A DNA stretch of 64,000 bases from Verrucomicrobium sp. (lineage in GTDB: Bacteria > Verrucomicrobiota > Verrucomicrobiia > Methylacidiphilales > UBA1321), in assembly GCA_017849585.1 (NCBI GenBank), contig JAFIGT010000032.1, forward strand, positions 84,027 to 148,026, in the 5' to 3' direction. This document shows, in pieces, positions 12,806-45,334 of this stretch. Under the pieces are notes generated by a model. The model did no database searches. It was not told where the DNA came from and saw only the letters and a program-made list of their open reading frames with translations. A program made the position numbers and the translations under genes. How positions within the stretch are numbered: the stretch's first letter is position 1; each line of letters opens with the position of its first letter.

Positions 12806-12843
12806 TATGGGGTGCGTTGCAACCGGGATCTCTCTGCGGCGAA

Positions 12844-16308: not shown

Positions 16309-16533
16309 CGTAATGTAGCTTATCTAATGGACTAAGGCGACAACGTCAAACTGGATGTGAAAGGGAAGTCGAACCGGGAACACTCAAAAGCCGTGTATGG
16401 AATAACGGATTGGCGCGGAAACCGGTATATTCCTGTGCAATTCAACATGGATCATTGCTGTTCCATTCCGATTCATAATGGACTGGGCAACAGAGGCTCA
16501 TGCGAAATAAAGGTGGAAAAGCTTCTCACACAA

Positions 16534-20886: not shown

Positions 20887-20970
20887 TCAAGAAAGTCGAT
20901 TTGAGACAAATCAAAAACCGTGAATGGCATAACCTCATTGTTTTGTAATTGGTACCCTGAAGAAGTGCGG

Positions 20971-22584
20971 ATGACTTCATTCAATTGTGCGTCCATTATG
21001 AATCGCTTGATTATTACGGGATTATTTTCGTTGGGACTTATCTCGCCTAATCTTTCGGCGAGTGAACCGTTATCGCCTGGTGCAGAAATTTTTTCTTATA
21101 CCTTCAAGAATCCCACCCTTCCGGAATGGAGTAAGGATTGTTCGGAATCGATCGGGCGTTACACCGTGACGAATGGCAGGCTAGTCGTGGAAATCCCGCC
21201 CGAAGCGTTGGGTGCGAGTGAGAAGTTGACGATCCCGCTTCCGCTGGAAAAGCTTTCACGAGGGGGCTTTGTATATGTCTCCGCCACGATTCAAGGAGAG
21301 AATATCTCCAAGATTCCACCGCTGAAACCATGGAACGGAGTTAAACTGGGAGCACGAGTGCGGCGTGCGCAAGGTCCCGACGAATATCCGCAGGCGAAGA
21401 TCACGGAGAGTAATTTCGGACCGAAACAAATCGGAACGCTGCTGACATTGCCTCCCGATGTGGTGGCGGTGGATCTGATCCTCGGGCTTGAAAATGTCTC
21501 GGGCAAGGTCTCCTTCTCCAACCTGCGTGCCCAGATTGTTGAGGATTCTTCCCTGAGCGCAAAGACGGGGCCGGTTGATTCCGCATTCAAGCCTCATTAC
21601 TTGCCGCGACTGCGCGGTGTCACAGTTCGGCCCAATCCCATTTACCCCGATCCGCTGAGTGCCGATTCACTTCGCTTTTTGGCGAAGGAGTGGAAGGTGA
21701 ATGTGATCCGCTGGCCGATTGCCGAGAATGGGGCGATTTCCTATCCGCAGGGACTCGATACGCCCAATCTGGACCAAGTACTCGAAACGGAATTGGCACG
21801 GCTGGATGCGCTGCTGCCACTCTGCCGGAAACTGGGTGTCTCGGTCGTACTGAATCTTCAAACCTTGTCCTACGGATTATTTTCCAGTGTGGAGAATCAG
21901 GATCGACTGGCCGCTATGTGGGAGAAAATCGCGGCCCGTTATAAAAATGAACCGGCCGTCTGGGCCTATGATATTGCCAATGAACCCAAGCAGGATAATT
22001 GGCAGCCAGGAGTGCGACTGTGGAATGATCTGGCCTCTCGAATCTGTCGCGCCATTCGCAAGGTGGATCCTGAAAAGCCTCTCATTGTGGAGTGCATCCT
22101 TTTGGGACAACCAGAAGGCATGGCCTATTTACGACCCGTGCCGGTGCCTCGGGTGATTTATAGCGCGCACATGTATCATCCCTTGGTCTATACGCATCAG
22201 CGGGCAGGTTCAGAAAAAGGGGCAATTTTTACCTATCCCGGAACAGTGGAAGGTCGATACTGGGATAAGGCCCAACTGGAACAGGCGTTGGCGCCGGTGA
22301 TTGAATTTCAGAAGAAATATAATGTGCCGATTTTTATAGGTGAGTTCAGCGCGATTCGCTGGGCGCCCGGAGCCGAGCGTTATCTTTCGGATTGTATCGA
22401 GATTTTCGAAAAATACGGATGGGACTGGTGCTACCATGGATTCCGCTCCTGGCAGGGCTGGAGTGTGGAGTACGGAACTGGTTGGAATGATTCTGCTCCA
22501 GCTGCGACTTTGACCGATCGGGAGAAGGTATTGCGTTCCTGGTTTGCCAAGAATTACAAGCCGGAATGGGCGGAACAGAAATAA
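20971..22584 (+). CDS. glycoside hydrolase family 5 (cellulase/mannanase-type)
   Basis: WAYDIANEP (acid/base) and IFIGEFSAIRW (nucleophile) motifs. Signal peptide follows the ATG at 20971. Confidence 0.85.
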   Translation: MTSFNCASIMNRLIITGLFSLGLISPNLSASEPLSPGAEIFSYTFKNPTLPEWSKDCSESIGRYTVTNGRLVVEIPPEALGASEKLTIPLPLEKLSRGGFVYVSATIQGENISKIPPLKPWNGVKLGARVRRAQGPDEYPQAKITESNFGPKQIGTLLTLPPDVVAVDLILGLENVSGKVSFSNLRAQIVEDSSLSAKTGPVDSAFKPHYLPRLRGVTVRPNPIYPDPLSADSLRFLAKEWKVNVIRWPIAENGAISYPQGLDTPNLDQVLETELARLDALLPLCRKLGVSVVLNLQTLSYGLFSSVENQDRLAAMWEKIAARYKNEPAVWAYDIANEPKQDNWQPGVRLWNDLASRICRAIRKVDPEKPLIVECILLGQPEGMAYLRPVPVPRVIYSAHMYHPLVYTHQRAGSEKGAIFTYPGTVEGRYWDKAQLEQALAPVIEFQKKYNVPIFIGEFSAIRWAPGAERYLSDCIEIFEKYGWDWCYHGFRSWQGWSVEYGTGWNDSAPAATLTDREKVLRSWFAKNYKPEWAEQK

Positions 22585-22592
22585 AGCGTCGA

Positions 22593-23321
22593 ATGCACTC
22601 ATTCCTCCAGAAATCAGTCGCGGGCAGGCAACGGGATCCTCTCTTCCTGTCGCGGGGCTTTACGTTGGTCGAGATGTTTGTCGTGCTGTCGATTGTGGCG
22701 GTGATGGCGAGCTTGCTGCTGATGGGGTTCGGTCGGGCCATGCAACTCTCCAAGAGTGCGAAAAGCACTGCCAATTTGCGCGCCATTGCGACCTCCATCA
22801 ATCTCTACGTCGGAGACAATCAAGGGCGCTATCCCTATCTTTGCGATAACACTACTGGCGGTGATTATGCCGGTACGAGTTATCAGGGGAATTATTGGTC
22901 CGATCTGATTCGACCCTACCTGCCGCCGAATCAATCCTACGTCAATTACTCGGGCCAGAAGTTCAATCAGTGTCCCACACTGATTGATCCCTTCTTGAAA
23001 AACGGACAACACCATACTATTTGCGATTATGGTGGCAGTACGGAAGTCTTCCGCTTTCCCTGGTTGAATGCGGCTATGCGCGCCGCCACGGTGTCACGTC
23101 CCAGTCAGGTTGTGATGGTGGTGACTGCGGGAACAAATTTGCGCGCAACGTGGTATCTGGATGTTTCGAGTTACGTCAATAGCTACGCCAACAAAACCAA
23201 CGATGTGAATGATCGTGGCACGGGGGAAATTCTCTGCGTCTTTATCGACGGTCATACGGAGGCAATTCCTACGGCGGAGTTTGTGGAGAACCGCCGGACA
23301 CTTTTGTTGATGAATCCCTGA
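22593..23321 (+). CDS. prepilin-type N-terminal cleavage/methylation domain protein (DUF1559/H-X9-DG-related, H not conserved)
   Basis: SRGFTLVEMFVVLSIVAVMASLLLMGF prepilin motif and a C-terminal ...ILCVFIDGHTEAIP. It sits 8 nt after GH5 and 8 nt before the SGNH gene. Confidence 0.8.
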   Translation: MHSFLQKSVAGRQRDPLFLSRGFTLVEMFVVLSIVAVMASLLLMGFGRAMQLSKSAKSTANLRAIATSINLYVGDNQGRYPYLCDNTTGGDYAGTSYQGNYWSDLIRPYLPPNQSYVNYSGQKFNQCPTLIDPFLKNGQHHTICDYGGSTEVFRFPWLNAAMRAATVSRPSQVVMVVTAGTNLRATWYLDVSSYVNSYANKTNDVNDRGTGEILCVFIDGHTEAIPTAEFVENRRTLLLMNP

Positions 23322-23329
23322 AAAAGAGA

Positions 23330-24079
23330 ATGCCTACCATGCTCCGTCCTGTCCGTAGCCTGCCTCTGGCCCTTGCCCTTTCGATCGGATGGGGGAGCAC
23401 CCTTCACGCGGAGACGGTCAACTGGCCGCTCGAGACACCACCGGCCGGAGTTAATCCAGCGGCTTATCCTGTGCCACGGAATGATTGGATGGTGCGATTC
23501 ACGGATAATCTCAAGCAGGCTCAGGGCGGAAATATCGATCTCCTGTTTCAGGGCGACTCCATTACGCACGGATGGAAAAGTTTGGGAGCGGCCGTCTGGA
23601 AGGAGCGCTATGAAAATCGCAACGTGGCTTCGTTTGGTATCAGTAGCGATCGCACACAAAACGTCTTGTGGCGGATGCAGCATGGCGAATTGGACGGAAT
23701 CTCTCCGAAGCTATTGGTGCTCATGATCGGCACGAATAATCTAGGTGACTCCGCGCCGCAGATTGCCGAAGGCATTACTGCGATCGTTCGTGAAGTTCAG
23801 AAGCGCTGTCCCCGGACGCATATCTTGCTGTTGGGAATTTTTCCGCGAGGTGCCAGTCCCACCGATGGACAGCGCGTGAAAATCGCGGAAATCAACAAAC
23901 TCATCGAACCGCTCGGTCGCGAACCAAGTGTGACCTATCTCGATATTGGAGAAAAGTTTTTGGCTCCGGATGGCACGTTGTCCAAGGAGATCATGCCCGA
24001 TTTGCTTCACCCTTCGCTGGCTGGTTATCGTATCTGGGCCGATGCGATCCAGCCCGTTGTGGACCAGTATTGTCGATAG
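23330..24079 (+). CDS. SGNH/GDSL hydrolase (esterase)
   Basis: Signal peptide. Block I FQGDSITHGW, block III MIGTNN, block V DLLHPSLAGYRIWA. Confidence 0.85.
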   Translation: MPTMLRPVRSLPLALALSIGWGSTLHAETVNWPLETPPAGVNPAAYPVPRNDWMVRFTDNLKQAQGGNIDLLFQGDSITHGWKSLGAAVWKERYENRNVASFGISSDRTQNVLWRMQHGELDGISPKLLVLMIGTNNLGDSAPQIAEGITAIVREVQKRCPRTHILLLGIFPRGASPTDGQRVKIAEINKLIEPLGREPSVTYLDIGEKFLAPDGTLSKEIMPDLLHPSLAGYRIWADAIQPVVDQYCR

Positions 24080-24090: not shown

Positions 24091-26472
24091 TTACTTGCTC
24101 GTGAGGGGTTTCAACGTGCCGTATTGCGCCGGGTCTTTGCTCCGGGAAATTCCCGCGGCCCACTCCAGACATTCCGCGCGTCCCTTGCCGTCGTTGTTAT
24201 TGATCACCAAGGCAGCGTGCAGCGGTTTTCCGGCGTCGTAAATGAGCGGGTAAAGTTCTGACCATGGAATACGGATTTGATAGCGGGTGATCTCGCCGTC
24301 GCGCACGATATGGGTTTCCACAAATTTGGCCGCGCTGCCGGAGGGCGACCACATCGCGGGAATATTACCATGAGGTTCGGCGGCGAGAATTTTCCACGCG
24401 ACCGGTCCCTGTTCGGTCAGCGCGAAGACAAATTCAGTATTGCCGCCCGCCAGACCGGAGTTTTCGCAATCCAGCGCGATCTGCACGCTGTCGCCACTCC
24501 ACCATGCGGATGATTCTTTTTGGACGTGCACGGGGTCGATGACTTCCACCACGACATCCAGACCTTGAGGTGTGCTGGCCAGAGCCGCTTTGGCGGCGAG
24601 TGATGGATTGGGATGTTCGTTTGTTAGGGAGAGCCGATGCCAGTCCTTCGTAATCCACTGGGCGCTGGGTACTAGGGCTGGGGTCTTGACCGTATCGAAG
24701 AGCTTCAGGCTGGACAGGGTGCCGGTGGGTGCAGGGCGCGATTGACGCTCGGCCTGACGTGGCGAGATGAGTTTGTCGGCGGGCGACGCGGCATCCAGTT
24801 TGGCGAGGTTGGGTTGGGAGAGATAATAGAGTTTTCCCGGCTCGAGTTTTTCGGTGGCATCGAGGCTGCGCGCCCGCCCCTCCCAGTCTGTCAGGCGCGA
24901 CTGAGGTGTGGCGAACTCTTTGACGAGATCAGCCGCGAGAGGTTCTTTCTCGCTCCAGAAAGCGAGGAGTGAACCTTGAGCGGTGGTCAACTCCACCGCG
25001 ATGGAATGGGGCGATAAGGCGATCTCTTTTTTGAACGCGGCCTGCCGTCCCGAGGTAATCAGGAAATTGGAGAGAATTACGGCGGGAAGACGCGGTTCGG
25101 TCTGTGGCCGTTTACGAAAAAGACCGGAGCTGTGAACGAACCATTTATTCTGGATGCAGAAATCGAGCGTCTCCCGTTCGACGAGATTTTTGATTTCAAA
25201 AAGAATAGTGCGCGTCATGCCTTGCTTCAACTGATGCATCAGGTCACGCATCATGCGAAAGGAGAGTGCTTCTTCGCTGAGGACGGGACCGCTTTGCAGG
25301 TTGCCCTGCAAGACAGCATGCCATTCGGAATTGAATGCGGGTTTGGGACCGGCCTTCCAGCGCTTCTCAATGTCGCGGAATTTTTCCTGTGGGCTATTCC
25401 AGGAGCCGTGCAGGGAGAGTCCATCGAAATAGCTCGCGCCGCCCAGAGATAAAATCCGGTCATAGAACGTATGGTAAAAGGAATTGGCTCCCAAGCCGCC
25501 GATCCACACTTCGCTGTTTGGCTGATTTTTCTTTATGGTCTCGTAGCCCGACTTGAGCATCTGGAAATAATTTTCCGGGGTATCGAGCCAGAAACAACTG
25601 CCTCCCGGCATGGCCGGTTCGTTGCCAATCTCCCACAGTCGAATGCGGTCGTTGTAGCGGTGGAGGAGCGCGTCGAGAAAGCGGGTCCAGTCTTGCATGT
25701 CGACTGGTGCGTATGCGGTGGCGGCATCCACGCAGATATTAATCGTGCCTGCTTTTTCCGGATGGGGTGAGGCCCAGTAGGGCGTGCCATAAATCTGGGC
25801 ATAAATCTGAAAGCCGGCGGCGGTATACATATCCACCAGACGATCGAATCCCACCCAGTTATATATTCCTTTCGTGCTCTCGATCACTTCATCCTTCACC
25901 ATCCCGCAACCGTCGGGTCCCCAATGGGCGGTCAGGCGCACGAGGTTAAAACCGACCAATTGCGCGAGCATCAAATCCTCGGGGTTGCTGGAGTAGGTGG
26001 CGAAACCGAATTGGTGGGCCGCTGCGGATGGAAATTCGTTATTGGGCAAGACGGCGATGCCGCGCCGTGAGTGGTGAAACTCCTTCGTCGCTCCGTTGGG
26101 CGCGCGAAACCAGAAGGAACGCTGGAGGGGTTGCTTTTTCCCTTCTTTATTCTCCGCGAAGAATTCCACTTCGTAGTAACCGGTTTCCGAAGGGGTCCAG
26201 GACCAGCCCACGTTCCATTGATCTCGCGGGAGGGAGATGACGGCGATTTCCTTGCCGCTGCTGTTTGTGACGACGCCCTTGATCGAATCGGTCCCCGAAT
26301 CCGGCGGGTTTCCGGTCATCCGGTAGCGAACGGTCTCGCCGAATTTCCACCAACTGATGGGGCGATCCGGTTCCATGGAAGTGTCGGCGCAGAACCCCCG
26401 ATTCAGCACGAAGCCGATGACGAGCCAAAGCCAGACTCGTTGCAGTCTCAAATTGCAGAAGACGAAAGCCAT
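24091..26472 (-). CDS. secreted glycoside hydrolase-like protein (clan GH-A-like) with C-terminal CBM9-like module
   Basis: Signal peptide. Motifs LWEIGNEPAMPG and FNSEWH. The C-terminal GLDVVVEVIDP...GDSVQIALD pattern is CBM9-like. Confidence 0.7.
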   Translation of the reverse strand: MAFVFCNLRLQRVWLWLVIGFVLNRGFCADTSMEPDRPISWWKFGETVRYRMTGNPPDSGTDSIKGVVTNSSGKEIAVISLPRDQWNVGWSWTPSETGYYEVEFFAENKEGKKQPLQRSFWFRAPNGATKEFHHSRRGIAVLPNNEFPSAAAHQFGFATYSSNPEDLMLAQLVGFNLVRLTAHWGPDGCGMVKDEVIESTKGIYNWVGFDRLVDMYTAAGFQIYAQIYGTPYWASPHPEKAGTINICVDAATAYAPVDMQDWTRFLDALLHRYNDRIRLWEIGNEPAMPGGSCFWLDTPENYFQMLKSGYETIKKNQPNSEVWIGGLGANSFYHTFYDRILSLGGASYFDGLSLHGSWNSPQEKFRDIEKRWKAGPKPAFNSEWHAVLQGNLQSGPVLSEEALSFRMMRDLMHQLKQGMTRTILFEIKNLVERETLDFCIQNKWFVHSSGLFRKRPQTEPRLPAVILSNFLITSGRQAAFKKEIALSPHSIAVELTTAQGSLLAFWSEKEPLAADLVKEFATPQSRLTDWEGRARSLDATEKLEPGKLYYLSQPNLAKLDAASPADKLISPRQAERQSRPAPTGTLSSLKLFDTVKTPALVPSAQWITKDWHRLSLTNEHPNPSLAAKAALASTPQGLDVVVEVIDPVHVQKESSAWWSGDSVQIALDCENSGLAGGNTEFVFALTEQGPVAWKILAAEPHGNIPAMWSPSGSAAKFVETHIVRDGEITRYQIRIPWSELYPLIYDAGKPLHAALVINNNDGKGRAECLEWAAGISRSKDPAQYGTLKPLTSK

Positions 26473-26503: not shown

Positions 26504-26597
26504 GTTAGGCTTCGGGATGATTTTGGCTAGGCTGATTTCGATCCGCGGGAATTGCGTCGAATTCGGGTAAATGAAAAGCGCAATAGAGCCTAACGGC
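26504..26597. promoter_or_regulatory. divergent control region with AGCCTAAC boxes in both orientations around a central GAATTCG
   Basis: gttaggct at 26504-26511 and gctaggctgatt at 26526-26537 (minus orientation, towards the GH gene). gaattcg at 26559-26565 and agcctaac at 26587-26594 (plus orientation, towards 26640). Confidence 0.45.
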
Positions 26598-26639
26598 GGA
26601 ATCGCGCTTGGGGTAAGTTGGAAGCTGCGGATTCCTCCT

Positions 26640-27350
26640 ATGAAAAAGAATTCTGTTTTCTGTTGGTCGGTTAAGATGATTTTTCTCTGGGCTCTTTTGA
26701 GCGCTCCGGCTCTCCATGCCGAGTCAGTTATCTATCAGGAGACGTTTGGCAATAGCGGTTCCGCCAACTATACGGTCGATAACAAAGCCCATGTGCTCAC
26801 CGATTGGCAGGTGGTTTGGGGACGCGCAGGCACCAAGGGAAATTCCACGCGAGCGATTATTTCCAATGGAGGTTCCAAGCCGGATACGGCGGTGAATATT
26901 GGCACCTCCCATGCCTCCACGAGCGAAAGCAATGGGCTGGTTTATACGGATGCTCCCACTCATTCTTATTTCTTTTTTACGTCGGCCGAAACGGGTGGTG
27001 CAATCGATCTGGACTTGTCGCAGGGATTGACCTTTGGCTGGTACCAAAGGAATAACAGGCCCGATGATGGTTTTCGCGTGGCGGTGCAGATCGATGGTGT
27101 CTGGTATGTGACAAAGGCACTCTTCTCCTCACCTGCCAATGTCTGGTCGCATCAGAGTTTCACCTTTACTCCTTCCGCGGCGAGTTGGTGTCTTCTCGAT
27201 TTTGTGTCCGGCCGTTCACTGGTTCCGGGGGGAATCCCCACGACGGATCTTCCGGCGGGCCGGATGACGGGATTCGGTCTTTTCACGGAAGCGATCACGG
27301 GGGAGACGCGGCGATTCGATACGTTTAGTGTCAGTGTGAGCGGGCGATAA
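26640..27350 (+). CDS. secreted protein, family X paralog 1 (no PEP-CTERM anchor)
   Basis: Signal peptide MKKNSVFCWSVKMIFLWALLSAPALHA. Shares VIY.ETFGNSG, TDWQV, NG(L/V).YTD, YFFFT, (F/S)WYQRNN..DGFRVAVQ(I/V)DG.WYVT and ITGFGL with the ORFs at 30630 and 32466. It ends FSVSVSGR*. Confidence 0.7.
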   Translation: MKKNSVFCWSVKMIFLWALLSAPALHAESVIYQETFGNSGSANYTVDNKAHVLTDWQVVWGRAGTKGNSTRAIISNGGSKPDTAVNIGTSHASTSESNGLVYTDAPTHSYFFFTSAETGGAIDLDLSQGLTFGWYQRNNRPDDGFRVAVQIDGVWYVTKALFSSPANVWSHQSFTFTPSAASWCLLDFVSGRSLVPGGIPTTDLPAGRMTGFGLFTEAITGETRRFDTFSVSVSGR

Positions 27351-27430
27351 AATAAATAGCGTCGACAATGCGCTACAATCATCAACCGTCTCTGTTGGGT
27401 GTCGCGGTGGGTGTTGGCTGGTGTGGCGAC

Positions 27431-27556
27431 GAATTTGAAATTTGAGATCGGAGATTTCGCAAGGGTGCAGTTGGGGCATGACTCCAGTTTTACCACGGAA
27501 TGCGAGACGAGCGTTTGCGTTAGGTGAGCTAGGTTTGCTGCGTGTGCGATATTTTT
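27431..27556. repeat. intergenic repeat element, copy A (about 125 bp)
   Basis: Carries gaatttgaaatttgagatcggagatttc...gagcgtttgcgttaggtgagctaggtttgctgcgtgtgcgatattttt. It matches 55536-55645 along its length, and 53016-53050 over the first part. It overlaps the stop codon of the 27555 gene. Confidence 0.7.
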
Positions 27557-30377
27557 AAGGGCGCACGGTCAGTGCCTCGCGTTTTGAAGCGCGAACGGCA
27601 TGCCGTCGGTCCGTGGGGAGGGGCAATTCGACTCGCAAGCGCGAAGGACCGAGAACATAAGTTTTCTCTATGATTCCGTCAGGGCTCGGGAGAAACGCCT
27701 GCCACTCCGGTGCGCTTAGGTCGAGCTGGCCTTCCATTCCCGGCGGTAACTGCACTTCCATGAATCCGGTTTTGTGTTTCGCGGTGGGCATTTGCCAGCT
27801 TACCCGAATGGCTCCGCGTAAGGTGGGGACAGTGCCGGAGGCTTGTGTCATCTCGGGATATAAAGGCCGAGGTGCTACGCGCACGGATCGATAGCCGGGC
27901 TGCGCCGGAGTTACTCCGAGCGCCATGGCTCCGGAGAGATAAAGTGGTGACGAGGCCCATCCGTGACAGGGCGATTTGGTGCGCTCGTGGTATTCGCCTG
28001 GGATGGGGCCGGGATGACGGTGACCGAGGCAGGTCGCACCCGCTTCCATTTGATGCTGATAGGTATCGTGAATCCATTTTCCGAATTTCGGAAAATCGGG
28101 ATGCCTGCACAGAATTTCTGCTGCCCAATGAAAGCTTGGTTCTCCGAGGGTCCAGAGGTCTCGCCGGGGCATTGGGGAGAGCAGGCGCTCGATCAGGTTA
28201 CCTTTTTCCCGCTCGTTCCACAGACCGAGATCGTAGGCCAAAATCTGGGCATGCTGCGAAAAAGTGGTGTTGGGCCGACCTTCCGTGAGGCCGTCCAGAA
28301 TGAGCCGCTGCTGCGGATCGTTGAAGCGTGGATGGGACAAGGCTTCGAGGCATTGCGAGGCTTCTTCACGCAGGGAGGCTTCTTCCTTGCGGCCCAGCGC
28401 ACCGGCGGACTGCGCCAGTAGGCTGACGGCGCGGCGATAGATCGCATTTAGGACGAAGGATTCGCCATTCAGATCGATTTTAGCCCAGTCGACGATGCGC
28501 CATTCCGGTGGATTGAGAAGAGTGCCGCACTTTGTTTTGAACTGCTGGTAATAGCGGTGGGTTTTCAGACAGGCATCGAAAAGGGAGTTTAGAAAATCGA
28601 GGTCACCTGTGTAGAGATAGTATTCCCACGTTCCCATCCAGAATTGCCAGGTCCAGACCGGTAGATTGAATGTGGCGTATGACGGGACCACCGACGGCAG
28701 GCGTCCCGCCTCGTCCACGCTGCGCGCATACAGCTCCCATGTGTAGCGCAAGGGTTGCGGGCTGAAGAGTGAGTAGAAGTAATTGCGGCCGATCCAATGC
28801 GTATCGCCGAGCCAGGCGCAGAATTCACGGAAGGAATCGGAGGAGACCACATCGGTGCGCGAATAGCGGATTGTCTCGCGCGCGGCATCCCAGATGCGAT
28901 TCCATTCGGGATCATTGCAGCGAAATGTGCCCAACTGCTCGCGTTCCGGCAACGGAGCCAACACTTCGGTGACTGAGATTGTCTCGATCTGGCATTCTCC
29001 ATTGGTCGAGAGAAAAAGATAGCGGGCACCGCGCGGCGTAAACAGATTTTGGAAGGACGCTTTCCCGGCGGGTAATCGCACGCGATCCCAATTGAAGACT
29101 TGGGGCGTGCCTTCTTCTGTCGTCTCGTGGCCATAGCCGATTTCCACCTGGGTGGGTTGCGCTGTGGTGAAATGGATCTGATAATGACCGTAACGAAAAC
29201 GGCCCAAATCGAGAATGAGCCCCTCTTGGTGCAGCCACTGACCGCGTGTGAAATTTTTCGGACGCGGATACGGAATGAAATCGCGGAACGAATGCCACGC
29301 ATAAAGGCAATCTGTGCCCACTTGTTTCAGAGGAACGGGAGGTGTGACCGGTGTGAAGCTCCACCTCGCCATCGTCTCGGCGGGGAGTCCGCGGAACTGG
29401 TCAAAGGCCCGTTCCAATCCACGCTCTCCAGTTTTCTGCGCTTGCAGGGCAAAGGGAAGTCCATCGCGGGTGCCAATCAAAACATGTTCGGCATCGCAGG
29501 TGATCAGACGAACTCCGGCCCGCAAATCGGAGCCGCGACAGTGGAATGCGTCCTCTGCCGCATGATGGCCGCAGGGAAATATTTTGCTGATATGGCCGGG
29601 TGCTGTTTCGAGAATGGCGCCCACTCCGCGAATGCCGATGGTGACTTTGGTTTCCGGGTGAATATCGGGAGAAGAGAAGGTCATTTCGACCAGCTGATCG
29701 GCTCCGTCGGAAGGCACGGCAAAAAGCGGGCCGGAGCTTTCGGGCAACGATGGGAAGGCGCCGAGCACGGCGATATCCCGGGAGAGGAAGAGTTCGGTGT
29801 CTTGCAAAGGAGGCACGGGATTCGCAGTCAAGGCGCGGCGCTCCTTTGCCACCGGTTGGGCTGGAGTCCACTCCGACTCTTCGTGCGATGTGATGCGGGT
29901 CCACTCCAGCAGGCTCTCTGTGAGCGGAGATTGATCTTCCAGACAGCCGAGATGCATGTTTACGCGTGGTGAAAAAGGATGGAATCCGGTTTCGCAAGAG
30001 ACTCTCCATTCGGGATTTCTCGTCGACAGATCCATTTCACCGACTGCTCCCTCGAGGCCGAAAACTGGCTCCCCCCGCAGATAACCAAAAGTGTCCACAT
30101 AGAGGTGGCGGACGAGAGCGCACAGAGTGTTCTCCCCGTTGCGCAGCGCGCCGGCCAGATCGTGACGATTCACGGGCAGCGTGTCTGCTAAGTGACGGCC
30201 CGGTCCGCGACCTACCTCGACGCCATTGAGGAAGAGGAGATAATTCGCGTCGGCGGTCACTTCCACGGGAAGGGCGTGGAGCGTGCCGTGAAATTCGAAG
30301 CGGAGACGAAAGCGGGATAGTTCTTGCAGGCGTGAGCCGCGTTGGAGTAAAGGCGATTGAATCAGTTGCATGAGCAT
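27555..30377 (-). CDS. alpha-L-rhamnosidase-related (GH78-like) six-hairpin glycosidase
   Basis: 940 aa. An N-terminal beta-sandwich pattern (LRFEFHG...ANYLLFLNGVEVGRGP) and a C-terminal CHGWASSPLYL motif resemble GH78 family members. No signal peptide is evident. Confidence 0.6.
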   Translation of the reverse strand: MLMQLIQSPLLQRGSRLQELSRFRLRFEFHGTLHALPVEVTADANYLLFLNGVEVGRGPGRHLADTLPVNRHDLAGALRNGENTLCALVRHLYVDTFGYLRGEPVFGLEGAVGEMDLSTRNPEWRVSCETGFHPFSPRVNMHLGCLEDQSPLTESLLEWTRITSHEESEWTPAQPVAKERRALTANPVPPLQDTELFLSRDIAVLGAFPSLPESSGPLFAVPSDGADQLVEMTFSSPDIHPETKVTIGIRGVGAILETAPGHISKIFPCGHHAAEDAFHCRGSDLRAGVRLITCDAEHVLIGTRDGLPFALQAQKTGERGLERAFDQFRGLPAETMARWSFTPVTPPVPLKQVGTDCLYAWHSFRDFIPYPRPKNFTRGQWLHQEGLILDLGRFRYGHYQIHFTTAQPTQVEIGYGHETTEEGTPQVFNWDRVRLPAGKASFQNLFTPRGARYLFLSTNGECQIETISVTEVLAPLPEREQLGTFRCNDPEWNRIWDAARETIRYSRTDVVSSDSFREFCAWLGDTHWIGRNYFYSLFSPQPLRYTWELYARSVDEAGRLPSVVPSYATFNLPVWTWQFWMGTWEYYLYTGDLDFLNSLFDACLKTHRYYQQFKTKCGTLLNPPEWRIVDWAKIDLNGESFVLNAIYRRAVSLLAQSAGALGRKEEASLREEASQCLEALSHPRFNDPQQRLILDGLTEGRPNTTFSQHAQILAYDLGLWNEREKGNLIERLLSPMPRRDLWTLGEPSFHWAAEILCRHPDFPKFGKWIHDTYQHQMEAGATCLGHRHPGPIPGEYHERTKSPCHGWASSPLYLSGAMALGVTPAQPGYRSVRVAPRPLYPEMTQASGTVPTLRGAIRVSWQMPTAKHKTGFMEVQLPPGMEGQLDLSAPEWQAFLPSPDGIIEKTYVLGPSRLRVELPLPTDRRHAVRASKREALTVRP

Positions 30378-30543
30378 GGTGGGAAAGTGGTGAAAAAGCG
30401 TATTTCGCTTTTTGTCGAGAGTATCAAGAAAGCGCGGGACCCATTAGGCCGGTCCAAGTTTTTAACTAGGACTGGTTCGATATTCGAACTGGGTGTCACA
30501 AAATCGCAGGACGCGGATAAGCAATCACAAAAAGGCCAATGTC

Positions 30544-30582
30544 GAATTGGTCCAAATGAAAAGCGCGAATCAGCCTAACCGC
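30544..30582 (+). promoter_or_regulatory. GAATTGG-N16-GAATCAGCCTAACCGC conserved upstream element
   Basis: Aligns with 26559-26597 and with the reverse complement of 33311-33348. It ends about 50 nt upstream of the ATG at 30630. Confidence 0.45.
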
Positions 30583-30629
30583 GTTCACCGAATTCTGGTT
30601 GGATTGGGCCATCACCCAAAACACACCCT

Positions 30630-31424
30630 ATGGAACAAAAGCCTCTTCTTTCGATCATCGGGCAGCTCGGTCTTCTCGGTTTCATGCTCCTGGCCATGCC
30701 CGCTCACGCGCAGACGGTCATTTATCGCGAGACTTTTGGAAATAGCGGTACGACGAATTATCTCCTGAATAATACGACCTATCTGGCCACCGACTGGCAG
30801 GTCTACTATTCGGCGAGCGGGACGAATGGGATGTTGATTCGGGCTGTGGCCTCCAATGCGGCTTCATCTCCGACCAATCTGGACAATGTCGGCACCGGGT
30901 ACACGACGCCCAGCCAGACAAACGGCGTGCTTTATACCGATCAACCCACGGATCCGTATTTCTTTTTTACCACCGGTCATACAGGGAACCTGATCAATGT
31001 CGCGCAGAACCCGGATCTTTCGTTTTCCTGGTATCAGCGGAACAATTCCGCGTCGGATGGATTTCGCGTGGCGGTGCAGGTGGATGGGAGTTGGTATGTC
31101 ACAAGTCAGCTGTTCACATCGACTGCCTCGGTCTGGACGCTGAAAACTTTCGCGTTTACGAACGATGCAGCCGATTGGTGCACGCTGAATTTTACTCCGG
31201 GAACGACTATGAGCGTTGGCAATGTGCTCGGAGCCGATCTTTCATCGAATAATATCACCGGGTTTGGACTGTACTCCGATGTGCGCGGGGCTGGAGGAAG
31301 CAATCGGCTGGATACGTTTACGCTCAGTGTTCCAGAAAGCCGAAGCGCGGTCTTGCTGCTGGGGAGTGTGGTTGGTCTGCTGGCGTGTCAACGCGTGCGC
31401 CGCCGTGCCAGCGTCACGGCGTAA
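30630..31424 (+). CDS. secreted protein, family X paralog 2, with degenerate PEP-CTERM anchor
   Basis: Signal peptide, then the family X conserved blocks. The C-terminus VPESRSAVLLLGSVVGLLACQRVRRR is a PEP-like motif plus TM helix plus Arg tail. Confidence 0.8.
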   Translation: MEQKPLLSIIGQLGLLGFMLLAMPAHAQTVIYRETFGNSGTTNYLLNNTTYLATDWQVYYSASGTNGMLIRAVASNAASSPTNLDNVGTGYTTPSQTNGVLYTDQPTDPYFFFTTGHTGNLINVAQNPDLSFSWYQRNNSASDGFRVAVQVDGSWYVTSQLFTSTASVWTLKTFAFTNDAADWCTLNFTPGTTMSVGNVLGADLSSNNITGFGLYSDVRGAGGSNRLDTFTLSVPESRSAVLLLGSVVGLLACQRVRRRASVTA

Positions 31425-31436
31425 GGCGGGTCGGGC

Positions 31437-32339
31437 CTATTGTTTGGCGGGGCGGAATCGAGCGCGGTATTCCGTGGCGGAAATGCCGAAGTGCGAGCGG
31501 AAGCGTCGGGCGAAATGGTTGGGATCGGCCCAGCCCACTTCGACGGCAATCTCGGAAATGGTCTTATCGGTACGCAGGAGCAGGCGCGAGGCTTGTTCGG
31601 CTCGGACCTGAGTCAGGTAGGTCATGGGCGGGAAGCCCAGGGTCTTGCGGAATAGTCGTCCGAGGTAGGACACATCAATATTGAGTTTTTTGGCCAGGCC
31701 GGAGGAGGTCCATTCGCCGCCGATATCTTCCGCGAGCAGGCACATGGCGCGCTTCACGGCGGAATGAACCGGTTCGCGATCGGATTGCGTTTCGATCTTA
31801 TCCCGGGGAACGGCTTCCGCGAGAGTGACCAGGATGAGAATAAGGTGGCCGATGCGATAGGGACGCGAGCCCGGTGTTTCGACTTCTCCCAAGGCGACGA
31901 GTTCTTTGAGGTGGTGAATGCAGCGGCGCAGCGTATCGGGCTCGAGATGCAGGCGGAAGGTGCCGGTGGGATCATCCGGCGATTGGCGCCAGAGCAGGAA
32001 ATTCAGGGCGGGTTCATCCAGCATCCAGAGCAGTTCGCGACGCAGGAGCGAGGTGCCAAAACAGCAGACGTAGGCGTTGACGTGACTGTTGTTGATGCCC
32101 GCATGCCACGCGCCGGGGCGTAGAAAGACGGCGTCTCCCTTGTTGAAGGAACTTTTGCCATGCGATATCTGTTGCTCGCCGTGCCCCTGGGCGCAGAGCT
32201 GAATTTCCATGAAGTCATGCGCATGGCGCATTTCGTTGCCCTGGCGGTCGGGGAAATGCAGGGCGACGATGGGGACGTGAACGGCGGGAAACGATTCTGT
32301 CCAGCACAGTGTGGGAATATCCGAGGAAGTGTCGTTCAT
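31437..32339 (-). CDS. AraC family transcriptional regulator (cupin sensor + HTH)
   Basis: The C-terminal TISEIAVEVGWADPNHFARRFRSHFGISATEYR is a canonical AraC HTH. Confidence 0.9.
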   Translation of the reverse strand: MNDTSSDIPTLCWTESFPAVHVPIVALHFPDRQGNEMRHAHDFMEIQLCAQGHGEQQISHGKSSFNKGDAVFLRPGAWHAGINNSHVNAYVCCFGTSLLRRELLWMLDEPALNFLLWRQSPDDPTGTFRLHLEPDTLRRCIHHLKELVALGEVETPGSRPYRIGHLILILVTLAEAVPRDKIETQSDREPVHSAVKRAMCLLAEDIGGEWTSSGLAKKLNIDVSYLGRLFRKTLGFPPMTYLTQVRAEQASRLLLRTDKTISEIAVEVGWADPNHFARRFRSHFGISATEYRARFRPAKQ

Positions 32340-32465
32340 GGCTGGCGGATTTCTGGACAGGTGGCCGACTCAATCGAGGTTGCCACAGCCGCATCAAAAC
32401 TGTCCAGTTCCCTTTGTACCAACGGCAGGGGAAGAACGATTCCTGAGATTTAAATGAAAAAGGTT

Positions 32466-33293
32466 TTAGCGGCGGCAACAGCGCGGGAGCCGAAGGCTCA
32501 AGAGGAGGCCAAAAACGGAAACGAGAAGGACTGTGGAGGGTTCCGGGACGGAGCTGATGATCGAGAAATTATCAAAGCGGACGTAGCTTGTGTTGGGATC
32601 GACATAGACGCCAAATCCAGTGATGTTCCCGGTCGGTAGCGTGCCGGTGAGGGACGTTGAATCCACGCCGAGAGTGGAACCGGCGGTGAAGTTCAACAGG
32701 CTCCATTGGGTGGCGTCATTGGTGAAGGTCCACGTTTTTTCCGCCAAGGAGGTCGAGCCCGACGCGGGAGTGGTGAAGAGGGTGTTGGTCACATACCAGT
32801 TTCCTGCCACCTGAACAGTGAGGCGTAATCCATCGGTTGCGTTGGCGTCGCCTTGGAACCAGGAGAAGGTCAATCCCTGCGTCGGATCAATGTCGATCAG
32901 GTTGCCCGCGTGGCCGGTGGTCATGAAGAGCCAGTTGATGTTCATGCTGTCGGTGAAGGCGACGCCATTGGTCTGCGATGTTTCCGTGTATCCCGTGCCG
33001 ATATTGGGCAGCCCTCCGGCACCGGTGGAATTCGCCACGTTGGAGATCACTGACCGCGCGGCGCTGCCATTGATGGCGGTGGTGGTGGAGTAGACTTTCC
33101 AATCGGTGTGAATATTGGTGCTATCGGTCAGATAGGTGTTGCTGCCCTTGGCGTTGCCGAAAGTCTCCCGGTAAATGACTGTGCTGGCGGCGGCAGGCAG
33201 TGGGATCAAGAGCGACCCGGCGAGGAGAATTCCTGCCGACAGAAGGGGGGAGGAGAAGTAGTTCATGGAGGCTGAAGGGCTACGGTTATTCAA
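32466..33293 (-). CDS. secreted protein, family X paralog 3, PEP-CTERM-anchored
   Basis: Family X blocks, then the C-terminus VPEPSTVLLVSVFGLLLSLRLPRCCRR. An alternative start at the ATG at 33266 (MNYFSSPLL...) gives a cleaner signal peptide. Confidence 0.8.
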   Translation of the reverse strand: MNNRSPSASMNYFSSPLLSAGILLAGSLLIPLPAAASTVIYRETFGNAKGSNTYLTDSTNIHTDWKVYSTTTAINGSAARSVISNVANSTGAGGLPNIGTGYTETSQTNGVAFTDSMNINWLFMTTGHAGNLIDIDPTQGLTFSWFQGDANATDGLRLTVQVAGNWYVTNTLFTTPASGSTSLAEKTWTFTNDATQWSLLNFTAGSTLGVDSTSLTGTLPTGNITGFGVYVDPNTSYVRFDNFSIISSVPEPSTVLLVSVFGLLLSLRLPRCCRR

Positions 33294-33310
33294 CCACGGA
33301 CTGTCGAAAG

Positions 33311-33348
33311 CCGTTAGGCTGATTCGTGTCTTTGCGTGGGTCGAATTC
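33311..33348 (-). promoter_or_regulatory. GAATTCG-N16-GAATCAGCCTAACGGC conserved upstream element (minus orientation)
   Basis: The reverse complement reads gaattcgacccacgcaaagacacgaatcagcctaacgg. It lies upstream of the 33293/33266 start. Confidence 0.45.
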
Positions 33349-33372: not shown

Positions 33373-34527
33373 TCAAAGGTTCAACGCCTTGTCGAGGGGG
33401 AAGGGTTCCCCTTGCCACGCTTTGAGAGAGGTCCATTTTTGATCGGGCTCAGACCAAAAAGGAGCGGACGGTGGCAATCCCAAAGGCAGGAGAACGGTGG
33501 AGCAAAGATAGAGACTGCCTGTCGAAATGTAGCATTCTCCAACGGAGGGTTGAGCGCCACAAAAACCAATGCGCAGCCAGCCTTGGTGGTCGAAAGTGCC
33601 GGGAAATTCGAGCGTGCGGCGCATGACGGCGGTCAGTGCGCAACGGACCTGAGCCGACGGTAAGGTCGGAGGCAGTTGTTGCTGGAGAGCGAGTTGGGCG
33701 AGACTGTGAAACGCCCCGCAACGATAGGCGAGTGATCGTCCCAGCGGGGGATAGGTGCCTTCGGGCGAAATCAAGCGTTCCAGAATTTCCGTGTGGCGTT
33801 GGGCGCGGAGACGAAGCGTGGCTTCAAGTTCGCGAAATTCCGGTTGGTGCGAGACGATATCGAGCAGCATCGGTTGAATGACGAAGCTGTTGTAGTAGTC
33901 GGCATGCAACTGGGGGCCATCGCCATAAAGACCGTCGCCGAGGTACCATTGCTCGTGCTGGCGCAGGGCGTAATCGACGCGCAGGGCGTCCCAATCGGTT
34001 TCACCAAAATGACGCAGGGCGGTTTCAATCATGGCGCTGAAGAGCAGCCAGTTGTTGAAGCTGGGGCGAATGGATCGCACCTGCTTCAACGCTTGAATCA
34101 GGCGAGATTGAACGCGAGCGGGCAGGGGTGTCCACAGGGTCTTGGGGGCACGCAGGAGTGCCTGTGCGAGAAAGGCGGCATCAACCAGTGGTTGCCGTCC
34201 TTTGGTGAAATTCAGGAAGTCGGGGGAGGCGGGATCGGTTGCCTGAGCGAGCGATTGATGGGTCAGTTGACGCCATGGCCGAGATGCGGGTTCATCCAGT
34301 TCCAGCCAAGGGGCCAGCCCCGTGAGCAGGCGGGCGAACGCTTCCAGATGGGTGTTTTCCTCCGCGTGTGTGGAGGGATCTTTTTCGACGGGCATCTGCT
34401 GGCGCAGAGTTCCGGCGGCCAGATTGTGGAGAATCGGACGCGCCAGTTTTTCGGCGGTGAGAATCCAATAGTCGCGGGTGGAGGTGGGCATGGTGGTGGG
34501 TGGGATTTGGTCGCCTGAAAATAGCAC
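33373..34527 (-). CDS. DUF2264-like protein
   Basis: 384 aa. The patterns YW..TAEKLARP, NNWLLFSAMIE, WYLGDGLYGDG, YYNSF and GRSLAYRCGAF resemble DUF2264 as recalled. GTG start at 34527, alternative ATG at 34491. Confidence 0.5.
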   Translation of the reverse strand: MLFSGDQIPPTTMPTSTRDYWILTAEKLARPILHNLAAGTLRQQMPVEKDPSTHAEENTHLEAFARLLTGLAPWLELDEPASRPWRQLTHQSLAQATDPASPDFLNFTKGRQPLVDAAFLAQALLRAPKTLWTPLPARVQSRLIQALKQVRSIRPSFNNWLLFSAMIETALRHFGETDWDALRVDYALRQHEQWYLGDGLYGDGPQLHADYYNSFVIQPMLLDIVSHQPEFRELEATLRLRAQRHTEILERLISPEGTYPPLGRSLAYRCGAFHSLAQLALQQQLPPTLPSAQVRCALTAVMRRTLEFPGTFDHQGWLRIGFCGAQPSVGECYISTGSLYLCSTVLLPLGLPPSAPFWSEPDQKWTSLKAWQGEPFPLDKALNL

Positions 34528-34673
34528 GGGGCAGATTGTAGGCGTTAGGCTGCTTTCGTCCCGCGAATGGGTTCGTTTTGAAGCCGGATGCTCAAATTCC
34601 CATAGTGCTTGCGCAATTCGACTAAGCGTTGCGCGTTTGGTTCGCAGGTGGTTCGGGTTATTTTAAAAGGATC

Positions 34674-36338: not shown

Positions 36339-37183
36339 CGAAAGCCCAGTTCATAGGCGAGTTCCTTGACTTGTTTGTTTTGGGAGTAGAGAGCAAGTTG
36401 TGCCTGACGCAGGCGTCTGCGGTCCAGATAGTGTTTGGTCGTCGCGCCCAGGTGATGGGCAAAAAGTCTTTCCAGCTGGCTGCGACTCAGGCCAACCTGC
36501 CGGGCCAGCAGGGTATTGGTATAGCGTTGATTGAGGGGCCAGCCGTTGAGCAGGTCCAGGGCGAGCGTCATCCGTTGATCTTCGAAATGGCGCAAATGCG
36601 GGGTGAGTCCCTCGGACGTCAAACAGTGGTACATGGTTTGCATCCAGTTCATCAGGGCTTGTTCAATTTGAAAATAATGAGGCAGGCTCAGTGGCGTGCA
36701 GGCAAAGCTGATGTCGTTGAAAGAGCGGTGGCTAACCCGACATACCATGCGCTGCAGCTTTTCGGCGCAGCGTCGTAGCTCGGGGTATTTGGTCTCCTTG
36801 AAGGTGACGCTCAAACCTTGATCAAACAGTTGCTGGCCGTCCGGCCATTCCGCATGGTAGCGGAGGGAGAGGATCTCCGTATTCGGGGAGAAATTTTGCG
36901 TGCGTGCGATTGGCTTGGGGAAGAGCCATTGTCCCGGTCCCGCGCTGACGCGGCAACCCTCGATGGTCACTTGGGCGTTTCCTTTGAGCACGAGCCAGGC
37001 CGTTGAACCAAGGGGGTCGGGACGGTAGCCCTCGCCGTGGGGCACGATAGGTCCACGATAAAGCCAGATGAGGGAGGTTAATAATTGACACCACAATCGG
37101 GGTGTTCCCGGCGATGGATTAGGATGTTCTGCCGCCGTTACCATGACGTGAAGTATGAGGGCCAATTCGAGTCGAGATGTCAA
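36257..37183 (-). CDS. AraC family transcriptional regulator
   Basis: C-terminal HTH KELAYELGFRHVSSFSAWLKDKTGRAPRDFK. Its 3' end overlaps the convergent FAD oxidoreductase gene by 82 nt. Confidence 0.85.
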   Translation of the reverse strand: MTSRLELALILHVMVTAAEHPNPSPGTPRLWCQLLTSLIWLYRGPIVPHGEGYRPDPLGSTAWLVLKGNAQVTIEGCRVSAGPGQWLFPKPIARTQNFSPNTEILSLRYHAEWPDGQQLFDQGLSVTFKETKYPELRRCAEKLQRMVCRVSHRSFNDISFACTPLSLPHYFQIEQALMNWMQTMYHCLTSEGLTPHLRHFEDQRMTLALDLLNGWPLNQRYTNTLLARQVGLSRSQLERLFAHHLGATTKHYLDRRRLRQAQLALYSQNKQVKELAYELGFRHVSSFSAWLKDKTGRAPRDFKDGLLL

Positions 37184-44031: not shown

Positions 44032-44076
44032 GAGTTCACATTGCTCTATTCGAAATAGAGAGGCAATTGTGAGGCT

Positions 44077-44092
44077 TTTTAACTCGTTAAAA
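44077..44092. promoter_or_regulatory. perfect 7-2-7 palindrome TTTTAAC-TC-GTTAAAA (candidate LacI operator)
   Basis: Read directly, about 46 nt upstream of the 44031 start and immediately downstream of the LacI gene. Confidence 0.5.
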
Positions 44093-44136
44093 TTGGAGGC
44101 CGCCACGCGGCTTGCATGGAATGGGCGAGGGCCGTG

Positions 44137-45283: not shown

Positions 45284-45334
45284 GCAGCGCCCGATTGCCT
45301 GACTTTGGGGATGCCATTACCTTCATCAAGACAC

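Follow-up and report, generated by a model that had tools for sequence, protein, structure and literature searches.

The DNA analysed here, called the window throughout, is a stretch of 64,000 nucleotides from Verrucomicrobium sp. (assembly GCA_017849585.1, contig JAFIGT010000032.1, positions 84,027 to 148,026 of the forward strand), and the subject of this report is a set of three related genes in it, X1, X2 and X3, which encode small exported proteins and stand among genes for carbohydrate-active enzymes (CAZymes) and their regulators. The corresponding open reading frames (ORFs) of the window are 26571/26640-27350 (+), 30630-31424 (+) and 32466-33293 (-). With the start codons discussed below, the genes and their recognisable parts are as follows.

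26640..27350 (+): X1, 236 aa, with a signal peptide (…ALHA↓ESVIYQETF, the arrow marking the cleavage site) and the end …FSVSVSGR, without a C-terminal anchor
30630..31424 (+): X2, 264 aa, with a signal peptide, a predicted beta-sandwich body and the variant tail VPES-helix-RVRRR
32466..33266 (-): X3, 266 aa counted from the ATG at 33266, with a canonical PEP-CTERM tail
~32469-32552 (-): tail of X3, within the X3 gene, made up of VPEPS, a hydrophobic helix and RLPRCCRR

The original prediction, made from the letters of the window and a list of its ORFs, had called the three genes clear paralogs, and on this the ORFs, a whole-length alignment and a profile search agree. Pairwise identity is 44% for X1/X2, 37% for X1/X3 and ~45% for X2/X3 (overall range 37-46%), and about 66 alignment columns are invariant across the three proteins, the predicted sequence blocks among them. 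An hmmsearch with the family profile against the six-frame ORFs of the window returned exactly X1-X3 (E = 1e-92 to 1e-105) and no further copy in the 64 kb, the next best match having E = 0.43. Four of the predicted blocks, VIY(Q/R)ETFGN, TDW(Q/K)V, NG..(Y/F)TD and (I/M)TGFG(L/V), are present in all three proteins; YFFFT and WYQRNN had been quoted as shared as well, and they are found in X1 and X2 only, with WLFMT and WFQGDAN as their counterparts in X3. The most variable part of the paralogs lies at residues ~60-130. The ORF proposed at 32466-33293 is a real gene, to be placed on the minus strand and most likely read from the ATG at 33266, not from the TTG at 33293, because its orthologs begin with MKYLS or MKYFS. 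For X1 the start at ATG 26640 is supported, since the alternative ATG at 26571 falls within a conserved non-coding upstream element.

Orthologs of all three genes, in the same order, are found on contig NEUU01000020 of Verrucomicrobia bacterium Tous-C9LFEB (L009), and on a third, more distant metagenomic contig (L001) an X1-like and an X2-like gene flank the orthologous gene of glycoside hydrolase (GH) family 78. Between the window and L009, amino acid identity and the ratio of nonsynonymous to synonymous divergence (dN/dS) are 84% and 0.14 for X1, 89% and 0.16 for X2, and 96% and 0.05 for X3, at a synonymous divergence (dS) of 0.34-0.58 for the three pairs. Conserved orthologs and dN/dS values of 0.05-0.16 thus mark X1-X3 as old paralogs, each kept by purifying selection. 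The presence of three copies within 7 kb had been taken to suggest a local expansion; a recent tandem expansion was dropped as an explanation in view of the 37-46% identity and of the orthologs conserved in Tous-C9LFEB (three) and in the third genome (two). Local duplication of members does recur in unrelated lineages: L018 carries a tandem pair (7085-7927 and 8001-8813) behind a LacI gene, and L012 has a standalone copy (6577-7425) followed by a 1,732-aa domain-containing protein (7736-12934).

That the proteins are secreted, as predicted, is borne out by the N-terminal signal peptides that can be read in all three sequences. These have a hydrophobic N-terminus and AxA-type cleavage sites (LHA↓E, AHA↓Q and AAA↓S) directly before VIY(R/Q)ETF, and none of them has a lipobox cysteine. 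A sorting signal at the opposite end of the family had escaped the original prediction. Proteins of the PEP-CTERM class are defined as signal-peptide proteins with a PEP motif, a transmembrane helix and a basic cluster (Haft et al. 2006, PMC1569441). X3 has the PEP motif as VPEP, with the tail TVLLVSVFGLLLSL-RLPRCCRR; that of X2, AVLLLGSVVGLLAC-QRVRRR, is modelled as a helix spanning residues 238-262, and X2 and its orthologs have VPES or VPEC, then the helix and RVRRR. In X1 and its orthologs the sequence ends directly behind the last strand, and the PEP region, the helix and the basic tail are missing. Among the 122 family members on which all our counts of sorting signals and of Pfam and NCBIfam families rest, 104 have PEP at 13-38 residues from the C-terminus together with a tail, and several others have PES, PEA or PEC; PF07589 is matched by 82 and TIGR02595 by 68 of the 122 (E <= 0.01). 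X1 and X2 themselves gave no match to PF07589 or TIGR02595 in the Pfam and NCBIfam scans. Judged by these sequence features, the X family is a PEP-CTERM, putatively exosortase-sorted, family, in which the predicted signal is intact in X3, present as a variant in X2 and lost in X1. Processing by the exosortase system is believed to prepare PEP-CTERM proteins for display at the cell surface. X3 would on this reading be surface-anchored and X2, with its PES variant, probably so, while X1 would be a soluble protein, released after loss of the anchor.

The family is large. A word-indexed search found 18 relatives, including a hypothetical protein of Tous-C9LFEB and one protein named "PEP-CTERM sorting domain-containing protein", whereas an exhaustive profile search over cluster representatives at 50% identity found 1,509 at E <= 1e-3, 1,017 at E <= 1e-10 and 320 at E <= 1e-30, with Verrucomicrobiota and Planctomycetota as the main sources of the 1,509; a family scan of genome contigs returned 6 loci. 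The named genomes with relatives belong to Verrucomicrobiota (including Chthoniobacterales) and Planctomycetota (Pirellulales, Planctomycetaceae), apart from one metagenome-assembled genome of Lysobacterales. Most members have 240-310 residues, some have two or three copies of the domain, and some domain-bearing proteins are giants of 2,000-5,000 aa. Three of these giants have malectin or PKD domains on one side of the domain and Ig-like domains on the other, and end in a dockerin or a type IX secretion system (T9SS) tail; other giants have it ahead of PATR or cadherin-like repeats. The original prediction had recognised no named domain, and the profile check it proposed leaves that assessment in place. 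No Pfam or NCBIfam model matches the ~200-residue body in X1-X3 or the 122 members (E <= 0.01), the NCBIfam matches in those members all being weak ones to PEP-CTERM-type families, among them PEP-CTERM protein families matched through the shared tail; in the six multidomain proteins scanned, the domain is likewise without a Pfam model; and PDB sequences gave 0 matches to the family profile at E <= 10. We found no published study of the family in the literature on PEP-CTERM proteins with CAZymes, polysaccharide utilisation loci (PULs) or Verrucomicrobia, or on DUF2264.

An AlphaFold2 model of X2, built on the 122-sequence alignment, has a mean predicted local distance difference test score (pLDDT) of 90.6 and a predicted template modelling score (pTM) of 0.84. 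It replaced a mediocre model from 18 sequences (pLDDT 81), and the Foldseek picture did not become sharper with it. The model consists of the signal helix, 13 beta strands and a C-terminal helix (residues 238-262) that corresponds to the membrane anchor. The body of ~200 residues forms a beta-sandwich jelly roll in which the VIYRETFG strand, at the cleavage site, comes first and the R-x-D-T-F strand last. Foldseek searches against PDB matched binding modules, namely the carbohydrate-binding modules (CBMs) CBM4-2, CBM11 and CBM22, a pectate-lyase CBM and the CBM-like domain of GH50 agarases, and further Cry toxin domain III, MAM and CIA30; against the viral database BFVD only generic jelly rolls were found (LamG, tail fibres and CBMs). 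The structural neighbours of the model are thus consistently jelly-roll beta sandwiches, and of ligand-binding rather than catalytic kinds. Near-invariant residues are Y32, F36, W56, G99, T114, W155/Y156, W183, F212/G213, R226 and D228, while 86% of members have E34. The Y-x-E of the first strand and the R-x-D of the last one may together form a structural clasp or a metal site, as would be expected in modules of this kind. The proposal that X1-X3 are a substrate-recognition component, for which an AlphaFold/Foldseek check had been suggested, agrees with this CBM-like predicted fold, which does not amount to proof of the role.

Upstream of the X genes lies an element of 38 bp. Written as TCGAATT-N23-AGCCTAAC, it matches at 15 of 15 specified bases upstream of X1, X2 and X3, and its end is 45, 50 and 46 nt, respectively, from the ATG. 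AGCCTAAC occurs five times in the window against 0.67 expected, a count reached in 0 of 100 shuffles. More fully, the element reads TCGAAtt-N10-AAAAgC-N8-GCCTAAy, and a position weight matrix (PWM) was built from eight sites. Strong sites (PWM > 40) number only five in the 64 kb, all of them in the cluster and each oriented toward a gene; mononucleotide shuffles gave a mean of 0.46 PWM matches at a score >= 12. The sites, including two weaker variants, are:

26557..26594 (+): element of X1, PWM 44.8, identical in L009
26504..26541 (-): element of the 793-aa CBM9 gene, one mismatch, PWM 40.4, 31 nt to the ATG, conserved in L009
30542..30579 (+): element of X2, PWM 49.6, conserved in L009 and L001
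30443..30480 (-): element of the GH78 gene, PWM 41.2, 65 nt to the ATG, with orthologous sites in L001 (8499-8536) and L009
33313..33350 (-): element of X3, PWM 46.0, conserved in L009
20896..20933 (+): weaker variant (…GGCATAAC) at the GH5 gene, PWM 21.2, conserved in L009 at 5865-5902
16369..16406 (+): weak variant (…GGAATAAC) at the 1509-aa CBM9 gene, PWM 12.5, in L009 at 1337-1374, ahead of the ATG at 1452

Two divergent spacers each hold two strong copies placed back to back. The weak copies overlap the listed GTG starts of the GH5 and 1509-aa CBM9 genes; the true start of the latter is probably downstream of its listed GTG, and in the GH5 ORF a signal-peptide-like sequence begins at about Met17 to Met27, so that there too the real start probably lies further downstream. 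The claim that each X gene has its own conserved upstream element is therefore right as to the element, which is real at all three, and wrong as to ownership, since the GH78 and CBM9 genes have it as well. All strong sites are conserved in L009. L001 has four elements: the X1-like, X2-like and GH78 genes each have a strong one, and a fourth, with the lower score of 24.8, faces a gene of 242 aa that was considered as a family member and rejected. The stretch from element to ATG is ~95% identical between the window and L009 despite the dS of 0.34-0.58, and the spacer between the divergent GH78 and X2 elements has undergone a large indel. A PWM scan found the element absent from the loci of distant homologs, and it is therefore specific to this cluster, not family-wide. 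We also observed that the leaders of 45-50 nt between element and start (26595-26642, 30580-30632 and, on the minus strand, 33264-33312), almost invariant between the window and L009, end in a C-rich CCTCCTATG, CACCCTATG or GCCTCCATG and not in a purine-rich Shine-Dalgarno sequence, which suggests a constrained leader or an unusual translation initiation.

Because the 38-bp element is shared, the X, GH78 and 793-aa CBM9 genes and, with weaker copies, the GH5 and 1509-aa CBM9 genes can be regarded as one co-switched regulon. A consensus scan found no canonical sigma-70 promoter in the relevant spacers, and the stretches from the element to the start of X1, X2 and X3 contain no sigma-54 sequence TGGCAC-N5-TTGCW (<=3 mismatches), the 299 matches in the whole window being at chance level (270 +/- 17). 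About 20-25 nt downstream of the element there is a semi-conserved box, GgTT-GaAT/TAAGTT, which could be a real -10 and would then place the element at about -35 to -73. AraC/XylS activators usually bind around position -35 to -73, and the AraC gene at 31437-32339 is our candidate for the protein that binds the element. The element might instead be the promoter of an alternative sigma factor, of the extracytoplasmic function (ECF) type or another non-canonical kind, and not an AraC operator. Its strict orientation at 31-65 nt from the start codons and the lack of a sigma-70 consensus promoter nearby would suit that explanation, as would the blocks TCGAAtt and cCTAAc, which are loosely similar to ECF -35 and -10 boxes. 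We consider it rather unlikely all the same: the distance of 25-26 nt between the outer blocks is too great for a -35/-10 pair, the possible -10 box downstream would put the element where an AraC/XylS activator binds, all three genomes have kept an AraC gene in the cluster, and none of the window ORFs scanned was seen to encode a sigma factor.

The genes around X1-X3 that make up the cluster are listed below.

16357-20886 (+): 1509-aa CBM9 protein
20920-22584 (+): GH5, with a signal peptide
22566-23321 (+): prepilin-type (N_methyl) protein, 251 aa, between the GH5 and GDSL genes
23330-24079 (+): GDSL esterase, with a signal peptide
24091-26472 (-): 793-aa CBM9 protein, secreted, with a CBM9-like C-terminal domain, divergent from X1
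27555-30377 (-): GH78 alpha-L-rhamnosidase, 940 aa (Pfam Bac_rhamnosid6H and Bac_rhamnosid_C), divergent from X2
31437-32339 (-): AraC regulator (Pfam cupin and HTH_18), directly downstream of X3
33373-34527 (-): DUF2264 protein, 384 aa (Pfam E = 3e-115), upstream of X3 on the same strand
36257-37183 (-): second AraC regulator

Pfam assignments bear out the earlier placing of the X genes in a CAZyme cluster with GH78 and AraC genes. The further statement that they stand head-to-head with large glycosidases fits X1 and X2, while X3 lies in tandem between the DUF2264 and AraC genes. An AraC gene is retained in the cluster in L001 and L009, and the L001 ortholog of the 793-aa CBM9 protein has a weak GH42 match. 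The GH5, prepilin-type and GDSL esterase genes (20920..24079, +) are a probable further transcription unit of the same regulon. Signal peptides, here as elsewhere judged by reading the sequences, are present in the 793-aa CBM9, GH5, GDSL and SASA proteins and not visible at the N-termini of the GH78 and DUF2264 proteins, a division that implies extracellular cleavage followed by cytoplasmic trimming. The arrangement has the look of a cluster for polysaccharide utilisation in which the outer steps are secreted and the inner ones cytoplasmic. DUF2264 may correspond to a CAZy beta-glucuronidase family and, if so, would suggest a substrate containing both rhamnose and glucuronate. No SusC/SusD pair was seen among the window genes scanned.

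To see what company the family keeps elsewhere, we compared about 16 independent contexts, the cluster of the window being counted once. Those beyond the window cluster include the following (X stands for a family member).

P0010: GntR-PBP, X 20 bp downstream; AraC adjoining
P0011: GH2, GH30, X
P0012: two GntR-PBP, X, GH115, AraC
P0013: divergent LacI, X, F5/8C protein, GH2
P0018: divergent cupin protein, X; GHL10 nearby
P0021: histidine kinase and response regulator, X, GH2
P0040: GntR-PBP nearby (short contig)
P0060: divergent GH28, X; then four GH29 and a GH95
P0085: X, SASA esterase
P0110: divergent LacI, X, X, the unannotated neighbour being a family member (hhalign E = 2e-37)
P0140: polysaccharide lyase (PL) family 8, X; IclR; AraC nearby
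L012: divergent LacI, X, the 1,732-aa protein that also has the domain
L014 (Planctomycetaceae): X, then a DUF1559 pseudopilin (4706-5776)
L011 and L013: nothing obviously glycan-related except a beta-helix protein

An immediate neighbour that is a GH, a PL or a carbohydrate esterase (CE) is present in ~9/16 contexts (GH78, GH115, GH2, GH30, GH28, PL8 and SASA esterase), and a sugar-type regulator (LacI, GntR-PBP, AraC, IclR or two-component) stands within two genes in ~10/16. Judged by eye, the association of the homologs with CAZymes and regulators is strong. The idea that homologs would always adjoin GH78-like and AraC genes did not survive the comparison: the enzymes may be GH2, GH28, GH30, GH115, PL8 or SASA and the regulators LacI, GntR-PBP, AraC or two-component, and a tie of the family to GH78 and AraC was accordingly dropped. 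Neither of the findings named in the original prediction as refuting it was made: the body of the family matches no named domain, and its homologs often keep CAZyme company.

Taken together, we read X1-X3 as co-regulated, non-catalytic accessory proteins of a polysaccharide-degradation cluster that bind or capture glycans, and we put the probability of this reading at about 0.5. Glycan binding is the most economical account because it brings together export, the sorting signal, the fold of a binding module, the malectin neighbours in multidomain relatives and the position of the genes at the junction of regulators and enzymes. At the cell surface, X2 and X3 would retain the substrate or fragments of it for the enzymes that the cluster secretes, and X1 would capture glycan in the surrounding or periplasmic space. 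The three copies may recognise different epitopes, differing specificities being suggested by the variability of residues ~60-130. The whole gene set would be switched on together through the 38-bp element, most likely by the AraC-type activator beside X3, bound at a site overlapping the -35 region.

Several observations weigh against this reading and temper our confidence in it. The model resembles CBMs only weakly (Foldseek E ~1e-4 to 1e-3 and template modelling (TM) scores of 0.4-0.54, normalised to the smaller partner), and the resemblance shows the fold class rather than homology; the same fold serves toxins, phage fibres and protein-protein modules. No recognisable catalytic domain was found fused to the X domain in the six multidomain proteins scanned. 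As to anchoring, X2 lacks the second proline of PEP, X3 scores 13.3 bits against the Pfam PEP-CTERM model, below the cut-off of 20.7, and no exosortase (EpsH/Xrt) gene was seen among the window ORFs scanned. The genomes concerned are rich in CAZymes, which makes the base rate of CAZyme adjacency high, and four contexts (L011, L013, L017 and L018) have no recognisable CAZyme among the genes scanned or listed. Finally, the assignment of the AraC protein to the element is purely positional.

Some of these points recur in a different account, according to which the X proteins are generic exosortase-sorted surface or matrix proteins, with a part in adhesion, exopolysaccharide (EPS), flocs or biofilm, and owe their proximity to CAZyme genes to the density of such genes in the genome. 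PEP-CTERM proteins as a class are highly diverse and correlate with exopolysaccharide production and with biofilm and sediment niches (PMC1569441), which speaks for such a role, as do the co-occurrence of the domain with adhesin-type repeats (PATR, cadherin-like and Ig-like) in giant proteins and the several contexts without an adjacent CAZyme. We nonetheless think it unlikely, since the 38-bp element common to the X, GH78 and secreted CBM9 genes points to catabolic co-regulation and not to exopolysaccharide synthesis, LacI, GntR-PBP or AraC genes directly flank the homologs in most loci, sometimes at a distance of 20 bp, and an element of the proteobacterial sigma-54/PrsR type is absent.

Two further roles appear very unlikely to us. 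Jelly rolls of ~200-250 residues are common among glycoside hydrolases and polysaccharide lyases, and the size and all-beta fold of the X proteins, the near invariance of Y32, R226 and D228 with E34 in 86% of members, and the standing of the X genes as separate genes inside CAZyme clusters are all compatible with a new catalytic beta-jelly-roll family that acts on the polysaccharide of the cluster. The structural neighbours are, however, galactose-binding-like and CBM modules and not of the GH16, GH11 or PL7 type, and the conserved polar residues belong to the first strand and the last, where they may serve as the clasp or metal site mentioned above; in giant surface proteins the domain is one module among malectin and Ig-like repeats, and the partner enzymes (GH2, GH28, GH30, GH78, GH115 and PL8) are so varied that binding fits better than a single chemistry. 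The beta-sandwich could also belong to protein tethers or scaffolds that, in the manner of cohesins, hold secreted enzymes or pseudopilin-like proteins at the surface: CIA30, MAM and toxin receptor-binding domains among the Foldseek matches are cases of protein-protein recognition by this fold, dockerin domains occur in giants that carry the X domain, and prepilin-type proteins are encoded in the same loci. Against such a role, we found no shared partner domain in the neighbouring enzymes scanned, completely different partner enzymes from locus to locus, and X1-type members without an anchor.

Elsewhere in the window, another PEP-CTERM protein of 280 aa is encoded at 3928-4770 (+; PF07589 E = 1e-6). 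It was examined as a possible X member and rejected, as the hhalign alignment covers only the last strand and the sorting tail. Its gene lies just upstream of one for a protein of 1002 aa with three F5/8 type C domains (4907-7915) and of a LacI gene (7952-9127), so that here again a PEP-CTERM protein has a glycan-related gene and a regulator for neighbours. Small prepilin-type (N_methyl) proteins are encoded at 45305-45997 (+), 1808-2647 (-) and 3062-3715 (-) in addition to the one at 22566-23321 (+), and the gene at 45305-45997 stands behind a divergent LacI gene (44137-45177) and ahead of one for a beta-helix protein. In other CAZyme loci these small proteins take the place that the X family has here. 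It appears that two classes of small exported accessory protein accompany the enzymes in this organism. ORFs of 260-360 aa without Pfam matches occur in the CAZyme-rich region at 34545-35633 (-), 37244-38077 (-), 43144-44106 (-), 47928-48725 (+) and 10477-11265 (-); the one at 34545-35633 overlaps a long ORF on the opposite strand (34629-36338) and may not be a real gene. Unrelated to the X genes are a trio at 58357-62124 (+) made up of circularly permuted ATP-grasp with Alpha-E domain (919 aa) and a transglutaminase-like protein (330 aa), and an ankyrin-repeat protein at 62872-63729 (-). GC skew is positive in nearly all 2-kb bins, the cumulative skew climbs steadily over the 64 kb, and GC content rises from ~52-55% to ~60% toward the right end of the window.

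Among known systems, the X family stands closest in its export anatomy to the PEP-CTERM proteins (PF07589, TIGR02595), with the same signal peptide and, in X3 and ~85% of the family, the same PEP-helix-basic tail. It also resembles that class in its many copies, in bodies without known homology and in single-gene units with their own upstream region; many copies per genome, bodies without known homology and frequent single-gene units have been described for PEP-CTERM proteins (PMC1569441). It differs in that the X body is a specific, widespread domain without a model of its own, in the lost signal of X1 and the PES of X2, and in its location in catabolic CAZyme loci with LacI, GntR and AraC regulators and not beside exopolysaccharide synthesis genes. 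Proteobacterial PEP-CTERM genes have an upstream motif 1 (…TTTACA), a spacer of ~63 nt and a sigma-54 promoter with -24 GG and -12 GC (PMC1569441). In contrast to this PrsR/sigma-54 regulon, the element of the X genes is not motif 1 plus sigma-54 and is shared with glycoside hydrolase genes.

With jelly-roll CBMs such as CBM4-2 of Rhodothermus marinus Xyn10A, CBM11 and CBM22, the X body shares the fold class and size, as far as the model shows, and with these and galactose-binding-like domains the pairing of N- and C-terminal strands in one sheet, besides the company of glycoside hydrolases and the malectin neighbours in multidomain proteins. Unlike them, it resembles no Pfam CBM in sequence and no PDB chain either, its TM scores are only ~0.4-0.54, and it is mostly standalone and anchor-bearing instead of being a module of a carbohydrate-active enzyme. 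An analogy of role can be drawn with the SusE/SusF-like surface glycan-binding proteins (SGBPs) of Bacteroidetes, which are, as the X proteins would be on our reading, small, non-catalytic surface beta-sandwich proteins co-regulated in CAZyme clusters, highly variable between loci and sometimes present in several copies. The X proteins differ from these in having a predicted PEP-CTERM/exosortase anchor or none and not that of a lipoprotein, in having no SusC/SusD neighbours among the window genes scanned, in belonging to another phylum and in forming one homologous family across loci with different substrates. The prepilin-type (N_methyl/DUF1559) accessory proteins of CAZyme loci in Planctomycetota and Verrucomicrobiota resemble the X proteins in being small, exported and without an assigned role, and in following LacI-type regulators and preceding enzymes; they differ by an N-terminal pilin-like helix in place of the C-terminal PEP-CTERM signal and are unrelated in sequence and architecture.

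The X family is thus not surprising in kind. What is new is a large unnamed domain family that would reach the surface by a different anchoring route and fills the accessory-protein slot in CAZyme loci of bacteria of the Planctomycetes-Verrucomicrobia-Chlamydiae (PVC) group. We see in it a good candidate for a new CBM family and, possibly, a marker by which verrucomicrobial degradation loci could be recognised. A wider proposal, which we consider rather unlikely, is that the X domain is a common exosortase-anchored glycan-capture component of Verrucomicrobiota and Planctomycetota polysaccharide utilisation loci, a counterpart of SusD and the SGBPs and the founder of a new CBM family. Should the X proteins bind no glycans, they would simply add another uncharacterised family to the PEP-CTERM class.

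Verrucomicrobiota and Planctomycetota play a major part in the degradation of complex polysaccharides from plants and algae. To our knowledge, and unlike in Bacteroidetes, no marker genes have been defined for their degradation loci and no substrate-capturing surface component is known for them; the X family could supply both. If it does, an X gene beside a LacI, GntR or AraC gene could be used to delimit such loci in both phyla, and with the 38-bp element an operator would for the first time be defined for a verrucomicrobial locus of this kind. X1, as a naturally soluble member, would offer a cheap target for a new carbohydrate-binding family, and the element, at five to seven transcription units, a testable AraC-type regulon in an uncultured lineage.

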